Positions 3,521-26,408 of a stretch of 27,458 bases of DNA are shown in pieces; the first letter of the stretch is position 1, and the number at the start of each line of letters is the position of its first letter. This DNA comes from a virus (taxonomy: Duplodnaviria; Heunggongvirae; Uroviricota; Caudoviricetes): IMG/VR virus record IMGVR_UViG_2703718852_000003, positions 1 through 27,458 of that record; one strand, 5' to 3'. A model generated the notes under the pieces. That model did not search any database, was not told the origin of the DNA, and worked only from the letters and a program-made list of their open reading frames with translations. Position numbers and translations under genes: made by a program.

Positions 3521-3882
3521 TATGCTCCAGCCTCCGGTGCTTTTGGCATTACTGCCCAGTGAGTGATATTGACGTTTTCAAGGTCCCCGACCTGAAATGT
3601 CCACTGCCATTCTCCGGTTTCTTTTTGTCCCCAGGTGTACCAGAGAGAACGCCAGCCAATTAGCCAGCCTTCTCCGTTAGCATCGAATAACAAAACACTT
3701 TCATTTGCTGGTGGCAGTTCAGTTGACACTGGTATTACTTTGTTTTCCTGTGCTGCACATTTAGCTTCAAGCGCATCGAATTTACGCACCAGGTATTCAG
3801 CATCTGTTTCATTTACTTTCAGATCTCGCGGTACACATCTCCCACGAAGAAACCCTTCCATTTCGAAAACATTCATGCGCAT
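3520..3882 (-). CDS. DUF551 domain protein (second copy)
   Basis: 120 aa; C-terminal ITHWAVMPKAP motif; tandem with the previous DUF551 gene. Confidence 0.65.
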   Translation of the reverse strand: MRMNVFEMEGFLRGRCVPRDLKVNETDAEYLVRKFDALEAKCAAQENKVIPVSTELPPANESVLLFDANGEGWLIGWRSLWYTWGQKETGEWQWTFQVGDLENVNITHWAVMPKAPEAGA

Positions 3883-8092: not shown

Positions 8093-8427
8093 ACAGTTTA
8101 ACAACACACTACCGTCGCTCGCAACTGATTGCGCTTCCTGTACCGGGTGGAAAAGCGAAGGTGGAGTATTGCTATGCAGTAAATGTACCAGGTGACAGGG
8201 AAATTGTAACCCACAGCTTTGCTGAGTGGGCTGTGGGGGATTTCAACCGGCAGAAGGAGACAGTCCTTTGCGACAAGTTAACCGCTGGTTCAAAGATCAC
8301 TACGGAGTGCCCGTCAGAGTCATTCGTTGGGAGCCGGAAACACAACGGGTTATCTACCTCCGTGAAGGCTATGAGCATGAGTGCTTCAGCCCGCTCGAAC
8401 AGTTTCGTCGTAAATTCAGGGAAATAG
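8089..8427 (+). CDS. YmfM-like hypothetical protein (reading frame uncertain in its 3' half)
   Basis: 112 aa ORF coupled to the upstream gene; its C-terminal third is Ser-rich and low-complexity, while an overlapping frame (8226..8447) looks more protein-like. Confidence 0.4.
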
Positions 8428-8436
8428 AGGTCGGTC

Positions 8437-9378
8437 ATGAGCACTAAATTAACCGGCTATGTATGGGATGGTTGCGCTGCGTCAGGCATGAAATTATCCA
8501 GCGTGGCAATTATGGCCCGCCTGGCTGATTTCAGTAATGACGAAGGTGTGTGCTGGCCATCAATTGAAACTATTGCCCGTCAGATTGGCGCGGGGATGAG
8601 TACCGTCAGAACGGCTATCGCACGGCTGGAAGCAGAAGGCTGGTTAACGCGTAAGGCGCGTCGCCAGGGTAACCGCAATGCGTCGAATGTTTATCAGCTT
8701 AACGTTGCGAAGCTTCAGGCAGCGGCATTTTCTCAACTGTCAGATTCTGACCCGTCAAAATCTGACGCATCAAAATCTGACACGTCAAAATTTGATGCGT
8801 CGAAATCTGGCAAAAAAGCGGGTTTTCACCCGTCAGAATCTGGCGGGGATCCGTCAGTAAAATCAAAACATGATCCGTCAGATAAAAAACCTTCTCGTCC
8901 GGACGCTTCGCAACCGGACACGCAGACGGCTGAACAGGATTTTTTAACTCGCCATCCTGATGCGGTTGTATTCAGCCCTAAAAAGCGCCAGTGGGGAACG
9001 CAGGATGATTTGACCTGCGCACAGTGGCTCTGGAAAAAAATCATTGCCCTGTACGAGCAGGCCGCCGAATGTGACGGCGAGGTGGTTCGTCCCAAAGAAC
9101 CGAACTGGACAGCCTGGGCAAACGAAATTCGCCTGATGTGTGTGCAGGATGGTCGTACTCACAAACAAATCTGCGAGATGTACAGCCGCGTCAGCCGCGA
9201 TCCGTTCTGGTGCCGTAACGTGCTCAGCCCGTCGAAGCTGCGGGAAAAATGGGATGAGCTTTCCCTGCGCTTATCGCCGTCCATCAGCACATACACAGAA
9301 AAACGCGAAGACCCGTATTTCAAATCCAGTTACGACAGCGTGGACTACAGCCAGATCCCGGCAGGATTCAGGGGGTGA
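8437..9378 (+). CDS. Replication initiator protein (O-like, N-terminal winged-helix DNA-binding domain) with an internal origin-like iteron array
   Basis: N-terminus (WPSIETIARQIGAGMSTVRTAIARLEAEGWL) typical of phage replication initiators; GAGG ribosome-binding site; Ser/Asp/Lys repeat linker encoded by DNA iterons, as for lambda ori inside O. Confidence 0.7.
   Translation: MSTKLTGYVWDGCAASGMKLSSVAIMARLADFSNDEGVCWPSIETIARQIGAGMSTVRTAIARLEAEGWLTRKARRQGNRNASNVYQLNVAKLQAAAFSQLSDSDPSKSDASKSDTSKFDASKSGKKAGFHPSESGGDPSVKSKHDPSDKKPSRPDASQPDTQTAEQDFLTRHPDAVVFSPKKRQWGTQDDLTCAQWLWKKIIALYEQAAECDGEVVRPKEPNWTAWANEIRLMCVQDGRTHKQICEMYSRVSRDPFWCRNVLSPSKLREKWDELSLRLSPSISTYTEKREDPYFKSSYDSVDYSQIPAGFRG
8739..8860. 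repeat. Iteron-like direct repeats with 15-bp period (CGTCAAAATCTGAC and variants, four tandem copies plus degenerate copies), preceded by palindrome GTCAGATTCTGAC; putative origin
   Basis: Tandem copies at 8752, 8767, 8782, 8797 and further copies at about 8830 and 8852, read directly from the sequence. Confidence 0.5.
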
Positions 9379-9380
9379 GC

Positions 9381-9710
9381 ATGAGTCTTTTGAATGAAGT
9401 TCAGAAATTCATTGAAGCCCATCCGGGCTGTACTTCCGGAGACATTGCGGATGCTTTTGCAGGTTACTCACGGCAGCGCGTTCTGCAGTCAGCAAGCAAG
9501 TTACGTCAGAGTGGGCGTGTGGCTCACCGTTGTGAAGGGGATACACGCAGACATTTCCCGCGCCTGACTGAGAGAGCGCAGGAGCCGGAACCACAACCAG
9601 TTCGTGAAACCAGACCTGTGCGCAATTTCTATGTCGGCACTAACGATTCCCGGGTGATTTTGTGCCTGACTCGCCAGGCGGAAAAACTGGTCAGGGAGAT
9701 GGCGGCATGA
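9381..9710 (+). CDS. Hypothetical protein
   Basis: ATG with GGGGG ribosome-binding site, overlapping the stop of the initiator gene; stop overlaps the next start (ATGA). Confidence 0.5.
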   Translation: MSLLNEVQKFIEAHPGCTSGDIADAFAGYSRQRVLQSASKLRQSGRVAHRCEGDTRRHFPRLTERAQEPEPQPVRETRPVRNFYVGTNDSRVILCLTRQAEKLVREMAA

Positions 9711-10033
9711 CGACGTTAACTCAATGCCAGCAGCAGGTGCTGGATATGCTGATTTCTTACCAGAAAGAACGTGGCTTCCCGCCAACCAATCAGGAGGTGG
9801 CAACCATGCTGGGATACCGTTCAGTGAATGCAGCGGTGGAGCATCTTCGCGCACTGGAGAAAAAAGGCGTCATCACGATAAAGCGTGGCGTGGCCCGGGG
9901 GATCACGCTTCATACCGCAGTGAAGGACGACGACAGCGAAGCGGTCGGTATCATCCGCGCACTGCTTGCCGGTGAGGAGAACGCTAGGTTGCGTGCAGCC
10001 CACTGGTTACATGAGAGGGGCCTGAAAGTATGA
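9707..10033 (+). CDS. LexA N-terminal DNA-binding-domain homolog lacking the S24 peptidase domain
   Basis: LTQCQQQVLDMLISYQKERGFPPTNQEVATMLGYRSVNAAVEHLRALEKKGVITIKRGVARGITL aligns along its length with the LexA winged-helix domain; protein ends after about 108 aa. Confidence 0.65.
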   Translation: MTTLTQCQQQVLDMLISYQKERGFPPTNQEVATMLGYRSVNAAVEHLRALEKKGVITIKRGVARGITLHTAVKDDDSEAVGIIRALLAGEENARLRAAHWLHERGLKV

Positions 10034-12695: not shown

Positions 12696-13736
12696 GTGAA
12701 CATTCAAGCAGTAGACATTTTTTGTGGCGCAGGGGGCTTAACTTTTGGGCTAAAAAAAGCCGGGATTGAAGTTTCTCATGGCATTGATATTGATGAGTCC
12801 TGCCGTTTCGCTATTGAGAGCAATAATCCCTTAACGAAGTTCATTAACCAGTCAGTTACTGAACTGCAATCCAGCGATGTGTCTGCTATGTTCAAGGAAG
12901 GAAATATTAGATTACTTGCAGGCTGTGCCCCTTGCCAACCGTTTTCCAAGTATCGTAATCCAAATAGCAGAAAAGATGATACAAAGTGGCGTCTTTTATC
13001 TGAGTTTCAGAGGATTGTAAGTGATGTCATGCCAGAGCTTGTGACTATGGAAAATGTTCCTCAACTTAGAAATCATAAGGTTTTTGAAGAGTTTGTTAGT
13101 GTATTAAAGACTCTTGGGTATCATCTGTGGTACGACGTTGTAAAATGTTCCGAGTATGGCTTGCCTCAAAATAGACGTAGATTAATTCTAATTGGGTCCA
13201 TATTGGGGCCAATCAGCCTTGATCAAAAAAAAGTAAGCCGTAAAGTTACAGTAAAGGATGCTATTGGTCAGTTGCCAAAAATAGGTGCAGGGGAGAAACT
13301 CGAAAGTGATCCATTGCATCGTTCGCCTAAATTAAGGGATATTAACCTTAAACGAATCTTGCACTCTTTACCAGGTGGTACGTGGGATGATTGGCCTGAA
13401 GAAATTAGAGCGGATTGCCATAAAAAGCATTCAGGTGCTACCTATAAAAGTGTTTATGGACGGATGGTTTGGGACGATACTAGTCCTACAATAACTACCC
13501 AATGTTATGGATATGGTAATGGGCGATTCGGACATCCTGAGCAAAATAGAGCAATAACTTTGCGTGAAGCTGCTATTTTACAATCTTTTCCTATGGATTA
13601 TAAATTTATTGGAAAAAATACGCCTTTTTCATTCCAAAAGTTAGGAACGATGATTGGTAATGCTGTTCCCCCTATAATTGGCCAAGTAATAGGGAGAACG
13701 TTTGTTAGGCATGTTGAGGGGATAAATATCCGTTAG
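12696..13736 (+). CDS. DNA (cytosine-5)-methyltransferase
   Basis: Motif I FCGAGG, motif IV catalytic PCQPFS, motif VI ENV, motif VIII QNRRR; GTG start with GGAGA ribosome-binding site; AT-rich. Confidence 0.9.
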   Translation: MNIQAVDIFCGAGGLTFGLKKAGIEVSHGIDIDESCRFAIESNNPLTKFINQSVTELQSSDVSAMFKEGNIRLLAGCAPCQPFSKYRNPNSRKDDTKWRLLSEFQRIVSDVMPELVTMENVPQLRNHKVFEEFVSVLKTLGYHLWYDVVKCSEYGLPQNRRRLILIGSILGPISLDQKKVSRKVTVKDAIGQLPKIGAGEKLESDPLHRSPKLRDINLKRILHSLPGGTWDDWPEEIRADCHKKHSGATYKSVYGRMVWDDTSPTITTQCYGYGNGRFGHPEQNRAITLREAAILQSFPMDYKFIGKNTPFSFQKLGTMIGNAVPPIIGQVIGRTFVRHVEGINIR

Positions 13737-14394
13737 AGATAATATAATCTTCAGTTGAGTTTATTAATAAACGAAGATATAGATCAACTCTCTCTGCTCT
13801 AGACTTAACTTCTTCTAAGGGGTCAATTTGCCCCTTTTTAGAGAAGCTAGTACTTCCATGCGCGAGTTCGTTTCTGATATCCTTAAGCAAGTCTAAGTCA
13901 ATACCATTTCTACATTCAGGTGAGTTTGCGATAGTTATTCCGTAAGCCTGCGTTATTTTGTGTAATACAGGCTTGCAAACATTACCATTGAATTCTTTAC
14001 GAATATTCAATGAGGCTGAAATTATTCTTTTGGAAATGTCAGTGCCTATCTTTTTATAAAGGGATTGCCCTGTTTCATTATCTGAAACAATTCTATGTAA
14101 TATATTTACTTGAAGCTTCTCCCTGAGTGATGCGTAATTCACCTCATTATCTTGTAAATGATCATAAATTGACTCGATGCAACCTCTGGCAGTATTTTCA
14201 ACTTGATTATATAGCATCATATGAACGGATGATTTTAAAATATTTACCCTTAGGATATTAGATTCTATTTCATCTTGATGCGCTTGCGGATCTAACTGCT
14301 GAGTATGAATCTCTATAGATGATGCAAGAGAAAGCAGTTCCATAATGTCTCTTGCTCTTTCTTCATATTCATCTCGTAAATCAATTAGACTCAT
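13705..14394 (-). CDS. HEPN-like protein (R-x4-HG motif), second gene of the DUF262 operon
   Basis: C-terminal IRNELAHG fits the HEPN R-x4-6-H motif; start 3 nt after the DUF262 stop; 3' end overlaps the convergent methyltransferase by 32 bp. Family assignment by eye only. Confidence 0.5.
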   Translation of the reverse strand: MSLIDLRDEYEERARDIMELLSLASSIEIHTQQLDPQAHQDEIESNILRVNILKSSVHMMLYNQVENTARGCIESIYDHLQDNEVNYASLREKLQVNILHRIVSDNETGQSLYKKIGTDISKRIISASLNIRKEFNGNVCKPVLHKITQAYGITIANSPECRNGIDLDLLKDIRNELAHGSTSFSKKGQIDPLEEVKSRAERVDLYLRLLINSTEDYIISNGYLSPQHA

Positions 14395-14396
14395 TT

Positions 14397-15557
14397 TTAA
14401 ATCCCTAACAACTTATTTTTAACGTAAAAGATTCTGTTTTTTAGCTGGCTGGTATTGTTTGCACTATCAGCAGTAACAAGTGTTTCAAATTCCTCTTCAA
14501 ATAGCCATTCACCTACAGGTACGGCTGGACTCTGGAGTTGTGGGTTAGTTTTTAATGCAAGTGCAGTTCCCACGGCAATGGCTTCGTATCTGGCTCGTGG
14601 GGTGGTTTTACTTGTTGCGGTCTTTTTAAAGCCAATAGGGAAATGGGTAGCAACAAAAGCAAGCATCATTTCAAAATCATGTTTAAAATTATCAACATCT
14701 TGTTGAGTAGTCACAGCTGCTGCTTGTTCATTTAAATAATTATCAATAAAGGGACGGACAAATCCCTTATAGTTTTCTAAATCATTTAAATATGCAAAAA
14801 ATCTCAAAACTAACTCACGATGATCGCCATTCGACCGTTTCCGGTCTGATAATGGAGCTAGTTGGGAAAAAAGTGAGTTTGTTGAGCATGGGGTCACAAC
14901 ATCTTTATAGAACATTGAGGTAGCAGCATCTGAGCCATGCCTCACTTCCATCGCTTCTAATCTTTTAACACCTGAGTTGATCCTTTCAAATAAATCTCTT
15001 CTATGTTGTTCCTCAACATCACCTTTCAACTCAATAAATCTTAGTGAAGCTCTTAAAAATCTTCTTTGGCGGCTAGCTAAAAGATCTGAAAATTTGAAAC
15101 CTTCTAAACTTTTAAGCTCTTTCAAATCCTTTAACTCAAATTGATCGTTCCAAAAATAATAAATAGAGCGTATCCGTTGTGAACCATCAATGATTTCTAC
15201 CCTACCATCTAATTCAGGGTCTTCATTAAATACATCAGCAATGTAAAGGTAAGGTATTGGAAAGTCTAATAGAATACTTTCTATAAAGCGAGAGGCTGTT
15301 TTTGTATCCCACTTGTAATCACGTTGATAATCTGGAATAAAAAGCTCGTTTTTGTCATTTTCAATATTATCACCATACTTTTGAATAATGACTTCAACGG
15401 TCCACTCACGTACATTGTATCCAATGTTTCTCTGAGCGAGTCTGATTTCATTGTCAGCGGAAGCGGTTAAAGCTGCAATTTCAGCCTTTTTTCTGTTCTT
15501 AGCGTGTTCATCTTGTATCTGAGCAAGCTCTTCTTTGAGTTCTTTGAGTGTAGTCAT
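14397..15557 (-). CDS. DUF262 (GmrS / ParB-like NTPase) domain protein
   Basis: Hallmark motifs FIPDYQRDYKWD and EIIDGSQR (DGQQR box); AAGGAA ribosome-binding site; AT-rich. Confidence 0.8.
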   Translation of the reverse strand: MTTLKELKEELAQIQDEHAKNRKKAEIAALTASADNEIRLAQRNIGYNVREWTVEVIIQKYGDNIENDKNELFIPDYQRDYKWDTKTASRFIESILLDFPIPYLYIADVFNEDPELDGRVEIIDGSQRIRSIYYFWNDQFELKDLKELKSLEGFKFSDLLASRQRRFLRASLRFIELKGDVEEQHRRDLFERINSGVKRLEAMEVRHGSDAATSMFYKDVVTPCSTNSLFSQLAPLSDRKRSNGDHRELVLRFFAYLNDLENYKGFVRPFIDNYLNEQAAAVTTQQDVDNFKHDFEMMLAFVATHFPIGFKKTATSKTTPRARYEAIAVGTALALKTNPQLQSPAVPVGEWLFEEEFETLVTADSANNTSQLKNRIFYVKNKLLGI

Positions 15558-23877: not shown

Positions 23878-26408
23878 GTATACGCCGCTTAGGGTCAACC
23901 GGGCTGACCGATAACAACCAGATGCGTTACGGCCTGGTTAAAGGTGATGGCTTTATTGAGGTTTGGGCCTTCCAGTGCGCATTTATCAACGGCGCAAAGG
24001 TTGCGGTACTGGCGCAGACGGCACGCACGGAATTATACATTCCAGACGGATTTGTTAAGCAAACCGCCGCGCCTTCTGGATATATTGAAGGCAACGTTGT
24101 AAGGATTTACGACCAGGTAAACAAGCCGACTAAAGCAGATTTGGGTCTTTCTAATGCTATGCTTACAGGCGCTTTCGGTCTTGGCGGTAGCGGGATATCA
24201 ACAAACGGCAAGATGAGCGATGTAGAGATCTTAAAAGCTCTGCGTGACAAAGGTGGTCATTTCTGGCGCGGTGATAAGCCGACCGGAAGCACGGCGACCA
24301 TTTATAGCCACGGTTCTGGTATATTCTCGCGGTGCGGCGATACGTGGTCAGCGATCAATATCGACTACTCAACCGCGAAGATTAAGATCTATGCCGGCAA
24401 CGATGCCCGGCTTAACAACGGGACTTTTAGCGTCAATGAGCTATACGGCTCGGCAAACAAGCCGTCGAAATCGGATGTTGGACTTGGCAACGTAACGAAC
24501 GATGCGCAGGTAAAAAAAACCGGCGATACAATGACCGGTGACTTGACAATCAAAAAAGGTACACCGTCAGTCTTCCTGCGGGCAGACAGTGGAGTCACCG
24601 CTTTGCGGTTTTATACTGGCGATAACACAGAGCGCGGCATAATCTATGCTGGTCCTAACACTGATTCGCTTGGCGAAGTTCGCATCAGGGCAAAGACAGC
24701 AGGGGGGACATCAGGAGGGGATCTTGTTGTTCGTCACGACGGGAGGGTTGAAGTCCGTGATCTCACAGTAGCGTATAAAATTAAAAGCAGAACGATTGAG
24801 ATTGCAAATACCGACACTGACTCATCGGCAACTACGCTCAGCATCTATGGAGTACAGCACACGCCGTTGGTTTTAACGCGTTCTGGTTCTTCTGAAAATG
24901 TGTCCATTGGGTTTAAGTTAGACAACATGAACCCAAAGTATCTTGGAATTGATACTAATGGGGATCTGGCTTTTGGTGAGAGTCCTGATCAGAAACAAAA
25001 CAGCAAATTGATCACGCAAGCGAAACTCGACAAGGGATTAACGATTGGTGGTCAACTGGCTTTCAAAGGTACGACAGCGTTTTCAGCCGTTGCTACGTTC
25101 AGTGCCGGGATAGCAGGAGCCATCGAGCCGGAAAACATTGACGGCCAGACGGTTAATCTTAACAACCTGACCATCATCAAGTCAGATGCCGGGGCAGTTA
25201 AATACTATATTTGTCCATCCTCTGCAGGTGGTGCAAATATCACCAACAAGCCTGACGGCGTAACAGGTAACTTTTTGCTCCGTGTTGAATCGACTCGTAA
25301 GGTTAGGGATTCAGATTATGCGAACATGCAAACGCTGATTAACAGCGACACAAAACGTATATACGTTCGCTTTGTTGTTAATGGAAACTGGACAGCGTGG
25401 AGTCAGGTTGTTGTTTCCGGATGGAATCAGGATGTAACCGTCAGGTCGTTAACCTCGACGACTCCATCAAAATTAGGTGGCGGGCGGATTGATGTGCTTG
25501 GAAGTACGTCAGATTATGGCAGCATGAATTGTACCGTTCGTGGTGTTGATAGCACTGGAACCAATTCGGCGTGGTCGGTAGGCACATCAGAAAGCACAGG
25601 CAAAAAGTTGTTCCTGAAAAACCACAGAAGCAGCGCTCAAGTGCTGTTAAATGGCGATGATGGAGCGGTTCAACTACTAAGTGGCACTGTTAACGGTGCT
25701 ACAGCGCAGGCGCTAACCATCAACAAAGATGAGGTTAACTCAACTGCCGATTTAGTAATTAGAAAACAAACAGGGACTGGCAATCGTTTTGCTTTACTTA
25801 ATTCAGGTAATTCAGAACTGCCAGTTAGCATCGCGGTCTGGGGGTCAAGTGATCGACAAAACGTTTTTGAGGTTGCAACGTCTGCTGCGTATCTGTTTTA
25901 TGCGCAAAGAACACCAGCAGGCCAGTTGTTTGATGTAAATGGCGCTATTAATTGCACAACGCTGAATCAGTCATCAGACCGCGACCTTAAAGACGATATT
26001 CGCGTTATCAGCGACGCGACGAAAGCAATCCGCAAAATGAACGGTTACACCTACACGCTCAAGGAAAACGGCCTGCCTTATGCTGGCGTTATTGCACAGG
26101 AAGTAATGGAGGCGATACCAGAAGCTGTGGGATCGTTTACTCATTATGGTGAAGAGTTGCAAGGTCCGACCGTTGACGGCAACAAGCTACGCGAAGAAAC
26201 GCGCTATCTTAATGTTGACTACGCCGCCGTGACGGGTTTACTTGTTCAGGTCGCCCGTGAAACAGATGATCGCGTTACCGCGCTGGAAGAGGAAAACACA
26301 ACGCTACGTCAAAATCTGGCAACAGCAGGCACCCGGATCAGCACTCTGGAAAATCAGGTAAGCGAACTGGTTGCACTTGTCCGGCAGTTAACAGGAAGCG
26401 AACATTGA
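23844..26408 (+). CDS. Side tail fibre protein with C-terminal intramolecular chaperone (peptidase S74-like) domain
   Basis: Fibre repeats (NKPSKSDVGLGNVTNDAQVKKTGDTMTGDLTI); C-terminal SDRDLKDDI ... coiled-coil segment typical of the auto-cleaving chaperone; true N-terminus uncertain because the frame is open upstream. Confidence 0.7.
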   Translation: MLSADNVSRHLSIRRLGSTGLTDNNQMRYGLVKGDGFIEVWAFQCAFINGAKVAVLAQTARTELYIPDGFVKQTAAPSGYIEGNVVRIYDQVNKPTKADLGLSNAMLTGAFGLGGSGISTNGKMSDVEILKALRDKGGHFWRGDKPTGSTATIYSHGSGIFSRCGDTWSAINIDYSTAKIKIYAGNDARLNNGTFSVNELYGSANKPSKSDVGLGNVTNDAQVKKTGDTMTGDLTIKKGTPSVFLRADSGVTALRFYTGDNTERGIIYAGPNTDSLGEVRIRAKTAGGTSGGDLVVRHDGRVEVRDLTVAYKIKSRTIEIANTDTDSSATTLSIYGVQHTPLVLTRSGSSENVSIGFKLDNMNPKYLGIDTNGDLAFGESPDQKQNSKLITQAKLDKGLTIGGQLAFKGTTAFSAVATFSAGIAGAIEPENIDGQTVNLNNLTIIKSDAGAVKYYICPSSAGGANITNKPDGVTGNFLLRVESTRKVRDSDYANMQTLINSDTKRIYVRFVVNGNWTAWSQVVVSGWNQDVTVRSLTSTTPSKLGGGRIDVLGSTSDYGSMNCTVRGVDSTGTNSAWSVGTSESTGKKLFLKNHRSSAQVLLNGDDGAVQLLSGTVNGATAQALTINKDEVNSTADLVIRKQTGTGNRFALLNSGNSELPVSIAVWGSSDRQNVFEVATSAAYLFYAQRTPAGQLFDVNGAINCTTLNQSSDRDLKDDIRVISDATKAIRKMNGYTYTLKENGLPYAGVIAQEVMEAIPEAVGSFTHYGEELQGPTVDGNKLREETRYLNVDYAAVTGLLVQVARETDDRVTALEEENTTLRQNLATAGTRISTLENQVSELVALVRQLTGSEH

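Follow-up and report, generated by a model that had tools for sequence, protein, structure and literature searches.

A probable replication origin within the initiator gene of an SfIV-like lambdoid prophage: dyad-symmetric iterons packed at 15 bp and an adjoining GATC/A-rich tract

In phage lambda, as well as in the Stx-phage variants 933W and P27, the origin of replication lies inside the gene of its own initiator, at the junction between the segments coding for the N- and C-terminal domains of protein O. The number of iterons in such origins is variable, the Stx-phage ori containing six iterons against four in lambda, with 13 extra residues in O (PMC7466680). According to a 2025 paper, 34 of 314 lambdoid phages of Enterobacterales encode only an O homolog, and their replication is called there not understood; phage LLS, which forms plaques on K-12, is described by the same authors as O-only (PMC12315714). 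Here we consider a DNA stretch of 27,458 nucleotides (IMG/VR record IMGVR_UViG_2703718852_000003, positions 1 to 27,458; hereafter the window), in which the replication initiator gene at 8437-9378 contains an array of short repeats in the part coding for the interdomain linker. With a probability of about 0.8, the segment 8739-8897 serves this SfIV-like prophage as its origin of replication, placed inside the linker-coding DNA of its initiator, and the repeats are putative initiator-binding iterons. Read in this way, the locus is a previously undescribed example of the well-known lambda-type layout with an unusual, 15-bp packing of sites. Its elements are the following (DNA sites are given with no strand assigned).

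8437..9378, plus strand: replication initiator gene, 313 aa, with a winged helix-turn-helix (wHTH) N-domain, a repeat-encoded linker, a lambda-O-like C-domain and a DnaT-like tail
8739..8751: iteron 1, GTCAGATTCTGAC, the best dyad of the array (perfect, 6+1+6)
8754..8766: iteron 2, GTCAAAATCTGAC
8769..8781: iteron 3, ATCAAAATCTGAC
8784..8796: iteron 4, GTCAAAATTTGAT
8799..8811: iteron 5, GTCGAAATCTGGC, the most degenerate copy
8812..8831: spacer AAAAAAGCGGGTTTTCACCC, which breaks the array; its TTTCACCC part is retained in many homologs
8832..8844: iteron 6, GTCAGAATCTGGC; most homologs have it too, at a corresponding place in the gene (nt 397 or later)
8848..8897: A-rich conserved tract, in which GATCCGTCA occurs at 8848-8856 and 8872-8880 (24-bp spacing; repeat family D6)

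The linker-coding DNA holds six 13-bp dyad-symmetric sites with the consensus GTCARAWTYTGRY. Five of them belong to contiguous 15-bp units starting at 8739, 8754, 8769, 8784 and 8799 (8739-8811), each composed of a 13-bp dyad (GTCA-N5-TGAC) and a 2-bp spacer, and the sixth is separated from the array by an 18-nt insertion; dyad pairing amounts to 6/6 in unit 1 and 5/6 in unit 6. Tandem Repeats Finder detects the array at 8746-8809 with 4.3 copies of period 15 (score 79); the top score of the window (93) is that of its period-30 row. With one mismatch or fewer allowed, GTCARAWTYTGRY gives 14 strand-hits in the 27.5-kb window versus 1.31 expected, none of 100 shuffles reaching 14, and 11 of the 14 fall inside 8739-8844. 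Isolated full-motif matches at 25508 and 26308 were discarded as agreeing with the chance expectation of about 1.3. No other repeat arrays were found in the window, and no DnaA boxes near the gene or within the early region. Exact CCGTCAGA half-sites occur upstream of the array at 8311, 8577 and 8603, two of them within the N-domain coding region; five such half-sites exist in the window, with 0.52 expected.

A sequence-only reading of this DNA that preceded our analysis had described, within 8739-8860, four tandem 15-bp repeats with degenerate copies and a perfect palindrome in front of them. The repeats and their location are confirmed, but the count should be corrected to five contiguous units and a sixth site; the palindrome GTCAGATTCTGAC is nothing other than unit 1, in register with the array and not separate from it; and the proposed extent starts properly but ends too early, as conserved DNA continues to about 8897, with GATCCGTCA at 8848 and 8872. 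Two further proposals of that reading hold as they were made: the repeats do encode a Ser/Asp/Lys-rich linker (SDSDP-SKSDA-SKSDT-SKFDA-SKSG), and the location of iterons within the initiator gene does parallel lambda, where the four annotated iterons occupy nt 349-433 of O as compared with nt 303-408 of the gene studied here, whose product matches PHROG 391 'replication initiation O-like' over its full length (residues 1-313 versus profile positions 1-298 of 298, E 2e-134) and is homologous to lambda O in its C-domain (E 5e-26). Shared with lambda are also the dyad symmetry of each direct repeat, the A/T-rich tract distal to the repeats, here a modest one, and the place of the initiator behind cro and a cII-like gene in the rightward early operon. 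The differences concern the number of sites (six versus four), their size and spacing (13-bp sites at 15 bp versus sites of ~18-19 bp whose starts are 20, 24 and 23 bp apart), two conserved GATC/half-site elements in the distal tract, the absence of a P gene and the C-terminus of the protein, which is IPxGFRG instead of ...DWIYGVDL in lambda.

The number of units is not fixed. Scanning of viral contigs gave only loci with an identical N-domain and was used solely to follow copy-number polymorphism: among 80 such loci six sites are present in 75, seven in 3, eight in 1 and five in 1. The number of 15-bp units would drift via in-frame slippage, each event adding or removing five linker residues harmlessly. 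In-frame variation of iteron number altering the length of the linker is a feature that this family has in common with the Stx-phage ori (PMC7466680).

Such polymorphism among near-identical genes, together with the Ser/Asp/Lys-rich composition typical of disordered linkers, is what one would expect if the repeats were merely a low-complexity SKSD protein linker growing and shrinking by replication slippage, with copies alike through recent duplication and the DNA itself functionless. Discrimination between the demands of peptide and DNA was based on a homolog set containing one gene per species for 80 bacterial genomes from throughout Enterobacterales, with 58-100% identity in the N-domain, and seven phage records. 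Repeat units were selected solely by the peptide pattern.S[KEDN].[DEG], which yielded 397 units in 72 distinct genes. Within them serine is encoded by TCA in 369 of 397 units (93%) versus 233 of 1422 serine codons (16%) elsewhere in the same genes, lysine by AAA in all 258 cases versus 62% elsewhere, and glutamate by GAA in all 75 versus 55%. For comparison, the commonest codon of invariant N-domain residues averages only 60%, with third-position pairwise identity of 0.485. In the codon alignment of 13 diverged genes third-position pairwise identity is 0.38 for the N-domain, 0.80 for the iterons and 0.48 for the C-domain; the 17 codons after the iterons, covering the GATC/A-rich tract, reach 0.84, and the value for the following segment is 0.49. 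Thus, the repeat DNA, whose conservation in homologs the sequence-only reading had left to be verified, is present across Enterobacterales with synonymous sites more conserved than those of the flanking domains. Meanwhile, the amino acid at position 4 of the unit varies non-conservatively between S, F, I, P, T and N by single-base changes, the dyad being largely preserved. Since synonymous sites are constrained while the peptide is loosely kept, purifying selection on the iterons and on the GATC tract acts at the nucleotide level and not on the peptide.

These data largely refute a pure protein linker: the structured domains on either side are much less conserved at synonymous positions, residues are poorly conserved whereas the nucleotide dyad is kept, and each unit forms an inverted repeat, a feature not demanded by coding alone. 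A further argument comes from a sister clade of homologs, which keeps both period and dyad with a wholly different peptide. We regard this explanation as the least probable of those considered, with hardly any weight left to it. The initiator family appears instead as a clean natural case of a coding sequence constrained mainly by an overlapping DNA-binding site.

The sister clade is also informative with respect to the protein that may recognize the sites. Homologs with the MSSKLHGLVWE N-domain (clade B, represented for example in Klebsiella phage Kp4866-6), which is ~60% identical to that of the window gene, lack GTCAAAATCTGAC units and have at the same place and with the same 15-bp period GGGTCAA-N3-TTGACCC units, encoding different peptides (PSNID, PPTVE, GSTIG). 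Type-A and type-B sites number 2.9-4.2 and 0.5-0.7 per gene in clade A, and 0-1.5 and 4.0-4.7 in clade B, respectively, and further variants of the N-domain (loci L079/L081 and L078) possess their own versions of the site. The type of site tracks the N-domain clade regardless of the C-domain type or the presence of P. Such co-variation is the pattern expected if the N-domain reads the repeats.

In single-stranded form the array is predicted to fold into hairpins: for single-stranded DNA of 8730-8900 the folding energy is -28.4 kcal/mol against -14.5 +/- 2.5 for shuffled sequences (z = -5.66), and none of 200 shuffles was as good. One may therefore suppose that the element acts single-stranded, either as mRNA hairpins controlling translation or decay, or as unwound DNA, for instance a structure of the primosome-assembly-site type recognised by PriA, which would suit the DnaT-like tail of the protein. 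However, any array of similar palindromes yields a z-score of this kind. With only one nucleotide at its centre, a 13-nt dyad is unable to fold into a hairpin by itself; the structure therefore needs pairing between units, and such pairing would not demand the symmetry of each unit. Co-variation with a DNA-binding domain, in turn, indicates recognition of duplex by a dimer, and action in single-stranded form appears very unlikely to us, only marginally less so than a functionless linker.

Distal to the array, beyond iteron 6, the sequence GATCCGTCAGTAAAA...GATCCGTCAGATAAAAAA (8848-8897) is common to all clades. In each GATCCGTCA element a Dam site is joined to an iteron half-site (CCGTCAG), and both iteron clades possess the element; of 83 homologs, 64 have exactly two GATCC[GAT]T[CT]A elements, with the 24-bp spacing in 58, and at least one GATC occurs in this part of the gene in 83/83 and at least two in 81/83. 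Positions 8855-8895 (41 bp) have 32% GC, with 46% A on the top strand, versus 52% GC in the whole gene. We propose 8848-8897 as the likely unwinding region, possibly a methylation-sensitive one. GATC sites in the unwinding region are a feature of P1 oriR and oriC. A gene for a Dam-type methylase was observed up to ~2 kb downstream of the initiator in 47 of 83 homolog loci and a D12-class adenine methylase in 5; downstream of the initiator in the window and in SfIV no Dam-type methylase gene was detected.

With iteron plasmids (pPS10, RK2, F and P1 oriR) the locus shares multiple repeats putatively bound by an initiator and an adjoining A/T-rich tract, and differs from them in the intragenic position of iterons, in the lack of a nearby DnaA box and in the type of initiator, which is not Rep_3/RepA with WH1-WH2 domains (no Rep_3 match). 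Plasmid iterons act in both initiation and control, which gives some credit to the assumption that the array binds the initiator mainly for autoregulation, for copy control of the titration or handcuffing type or for exclusion of related phages, the unwinding site being elsewhere. Constraint on DNA and co-variation with the N-domain do not locate the replication start, the A-rich tract is only moderately AT-rich, and the extra CCGTCAGA half-sites at 8311, 8577 and 8603 also fit this assumption. On the other side, the window has no other repeat array and no nearby DnaA boxes hinting at another type of origin, the synonymous conservation of the GATC/A-rich tract (0.84) is on a par with that of the iterons, as befits a composite origin, and the array is placed as the experimentally defined ori of lambda (PMC7466680). 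An array serving mainly control is therefore improbable in our estimate, though it deserves more attention than the two other alternatives.

Several observations weigh against the assignment of 8739-8897 as an origin. Slippage-driven concerted evolution makes the copies of an array uniform, and the counts of units given above are inflated by it; it does not explain, however, conservation across 72 species-level genes with saturated synonymous sites in the flanks. The A-rich tract is modest: GC content is lower elsewhere in the early region, between cI and cro, a classic unwinding element would be longer and richer in AT, and the A/T-rich element of lambda is stronger. Similarity between the N-domain and that of lambda O (residues 1-118) is undetectable (hhalign probability 0.1). 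Finally, the 15-bp centre-to-centre distance corresponds to ~1.4 helical turns with 2 bp between sites, as against about two turns (20-24 bp) in lambda; therefore the geometry of the wrapped lambda O-some cannot be assumed, and neighbouring sites may not be co-occupied.

By analogy with lambda O/ori-lambda and the Stx-phage variants, one can propose that dimers of the N-domain bind the iterons with the formation of a nucleoprotein complex, that this complex destabilises the adjoining A-rich tract, and that transcription from the rightward early promoter passes through the origin. The initiator would then bring in the host DnaB-DnaC, and its last ~9 residues are, from comparative data, the best candidate for an adaptor. 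Phage LLS offers a living counterpart: its gp44 is identical to the window protein in 86 of 98 N-domain residues, possesses the same iterons and GATC elements and ends with the tail DTKIPEGFRG, differing in the C-domain, which is of another type (ITD...ENIRARL) and not lambda-O-like. LLS also resembles the window in having no helicase or loader, early-left genes of the yfbR/yfdQ type, no Rec module and abundant Chi; as far as the available part of the paper goes, neither iterons nor the DnaT-like tail are described there (PMC12315714). LLS forms plaques with an initiator of the same family, so that an origin and initiator of this design are functional in a viable phage. Placement of the origin provides a target for studies of induction and replication and for construction of mini-replicons, and helps to predict replication incompatibility and specificity among co-resident prophages.

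The architecture of the initiator is defined by three further segments.

8437..8730, plus strand: N-domain, a DNA-binding winged helix (aa 1-98), with Pfam HTH_36 matched over aa 23-70 (E 4e-11)
8983..9267, plus strand: C-domain (aa 183-277), a homolog of its counterpart in lambda O (E 5e-26 by BLASTP)
9349..9375, plus strand: C-terminal tail SQIPAGFRG, aa 305-313; 8 of 9 residues coincide with the C-terminus of E. coli DnaT, SQIPPGFRG

The N-domain (aa 1-98), the presumed reader of the iterons, shows weaker Pfam matches to GntR, MarR, DnaD_N and RP-C, and Phage_rep_O (PF04492) was not matched at the N-terminus, where Pfam gives HTH_36 instead. Homology of the C-domain covers residues ~186-270 of lambda O with conservation of WGT.EDLT...WAN(E/D)IRLM...FW..NVLSP.KLR.KW. 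The name 'O-like', given to the initiator by the sequence-only reading, is thus valid for its architecture and C-domain only and fails for the N-domain. Searching the PDB with the whole protein sequence returned only generic MarR/PaaX wHTH matches, a profile search with the lambda-O-like C-domain revealed no relative with a solved structure, and NCBIfam gave no informative match for the initiator. A match to the 'O' protein of Min27 (43% over the HTH) was set aside as uninformative, that protein being part of another module, in which a large 'P' protein comes next.

The same reading had stated that no helicase-loader gene follows the initiator, and this is the case: in order, the downstream genes are PerC-like, LexA-N-domain protein, RusA, KilA-N, DUF968/HNH and Q. 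Among the open reading frames (ORFs) of the window that were tested, none matched P, DnaC, DnaB, helicase, loader or primase families, and none of the phage relatives has a loader or helicase gene after the initiator. As no P, DnaC or DnaB gene is there, host DnaB-DnaC would have to be recruited by the initiator itself. Attention is drawn in this connection to its C-terminal tail. By BLASTP, similarity between the initiator and DnaT (primosomal protein I) is restricted to the last nine residues, the rest of the two proteins being different, and the DnaT domain PF17948 gave no match at E <= 0.01; the initiator shares a motif with DnaT, not family membership, and the label 'primosomal protein' of SfIV gp41 probably rests on this nine-residue tail. 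The ending P.GFRG is found in 99 of 107 near-full-length DnaT orthologs, and a GFRGAK variant in both DnaT and some initiators. The acidic-IP-x-x-F pattern of the tail recalls the C-terminal tip of SSB (DDDIPF).

Distribution of tails is related to the presence of P. Among 83 homologs 48 end with GFR[GST], and a downstream Pfam Phage_lambda_P gene accompanies 0 of these 48. All eight homologs having P (8/8) end with other tails, six of them with a W..L tail like the ...DWIYGVDL of lambda O (Fisher p = 6e-4). A telling pair is formed by locus L003 (GFRT tail, no P) and locus L082 (W..TL tail, P), with C-domains 90% identical over 108 aa and unrelated tails. The third class, 21 of 83 homologs (L006, L022, L028, L045, L058 and L063 among them), is P-less, has a length of 335-374 aa and ends with WKE..QR..AA or WQQAAEQAA after an extra extension of ~60 residues; this long C-terminus may be another loader-less solution. 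Should the tail be an adaptor, it would form with the P gene one exchangeable module in this family, W..L going with P and GFRG without it, and this exchange would be independent of the N-domain/iteron module and of the C-domain type.

We tentatively suggest, putting the chance somewhat below even, that the IPxGFRG tail mimics the C-terminus of host DnaT or was captured from it, serving as an adaptor to the host DnaB-DnaC or primosome in place of a phage loader. Solo initiators of another kind bear the same ending: the 272-aa proteins SfV orf39, ST64B sb42 and Stx2a_1447 likewise have an HTH N-domain and in-gene linker repeats, finish with REDPYFK.SY.NVDYSQIP.GFRG and are followed by the same downstream genes, being unrelated in the N-domain, the C-domain and the repeats themselves (GGTAGTGCAGGAG-type and GAACCAGTCA). 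The case for an adaptor is weakened by the following: the p value above is uncorrected for phylogeny, and the 83 genes are not phylogenetically independent; the search for P reached ~2 kb downstream of each homolog; the 21 P-less initiators of the third class make the GFRG tail not the sole loader-less solution; and the papers on DnaT structure consulted assign no partner to its C-terminal peptide. A literature search on GFRG with DnaT returned nothing relevant. If the adaptor reading is true, it accounts for replication of 'O-only' lambdoid phages and ascribes a partner-recruiting role to the DnaT C-terminus; the anticorrelation between tail and P gives an experimental handle on the question stated as open in 2025.

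The last 76 nt of the initiator gene (9303-9378) show 93-95% identity to the 3' ends of replication genes from SfV (orf39), mEp460, cdtI and Stx2a/Stx2c phages that are unrelated elsewhere, forming a sharp mosaic junction. A second mosaic junction is located directly 3' of the repeats, mEp460_4F5 sharing only nt 443-942 of the gene and phiNP only nt 2-479.

By gene order and similarity, the window represents an SfIV/SfII-like lambdoid prophage from integrase through head genes. The initiator ORF (942 bp) is 98-99% identical to genes of a 'replication/primosomal protein' in Shigella phages SfIV and SfII and several E. coli phages, identity of the product to SfIV gp41 being 98.8%, and the early-right order of SfIV is matched as well: cI-like repressor, cro, cII-like gene (Phage_CP76), two small ORFs and the initiator, followed by the downstream genes named above. 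The initiator gene is widespread: of 5426 complete E. coli genomes, 1576 have it at 80% of its length or more, under no more specific RefSeq label than 'helix-turn-helix domain-containing protein', and it is also carried by serotype-converting Shigella phages and phage LLS; the SfIV genome paper makes no mention of an origin or repeats. Just downstream, at 9375-10033, ORFs for a 111-aa PerC-like and a 123-aa LexA-N-like protein overlap by 49 nt and span 659 nt in total; their SfIV counterparts gp42 (164 aa) and gp43 (108 aa) span 821 nt, and a deletion or frameshift in the window may have truncated the PerC-like gene.

The early-left ORFs tested (YfbR-like, DUF2303/yfdQ, DUF551) include no recognisable Rec module. 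Chi sites (GCTGGTGG) number 10 in the window versus 0.88 expected, nine of them on the plus strand, at 3707, 7733, 10332, 11481, 11752, 15716, 16027, 16841 (minus), 16847 and 17186. Between Q and the lysis genes the following three cargo genes are located.

12696-13736, plus strand: C-5 cytosine methylase gene
13705-14394, strand opposite to the methylase: HEPN protein of the MAE_28990 type
14397-15557, strand opposite to the methylase: protein with a GmrSD_N domain

Taken together, this trio (12696-15557) looks like a defence or moron island.

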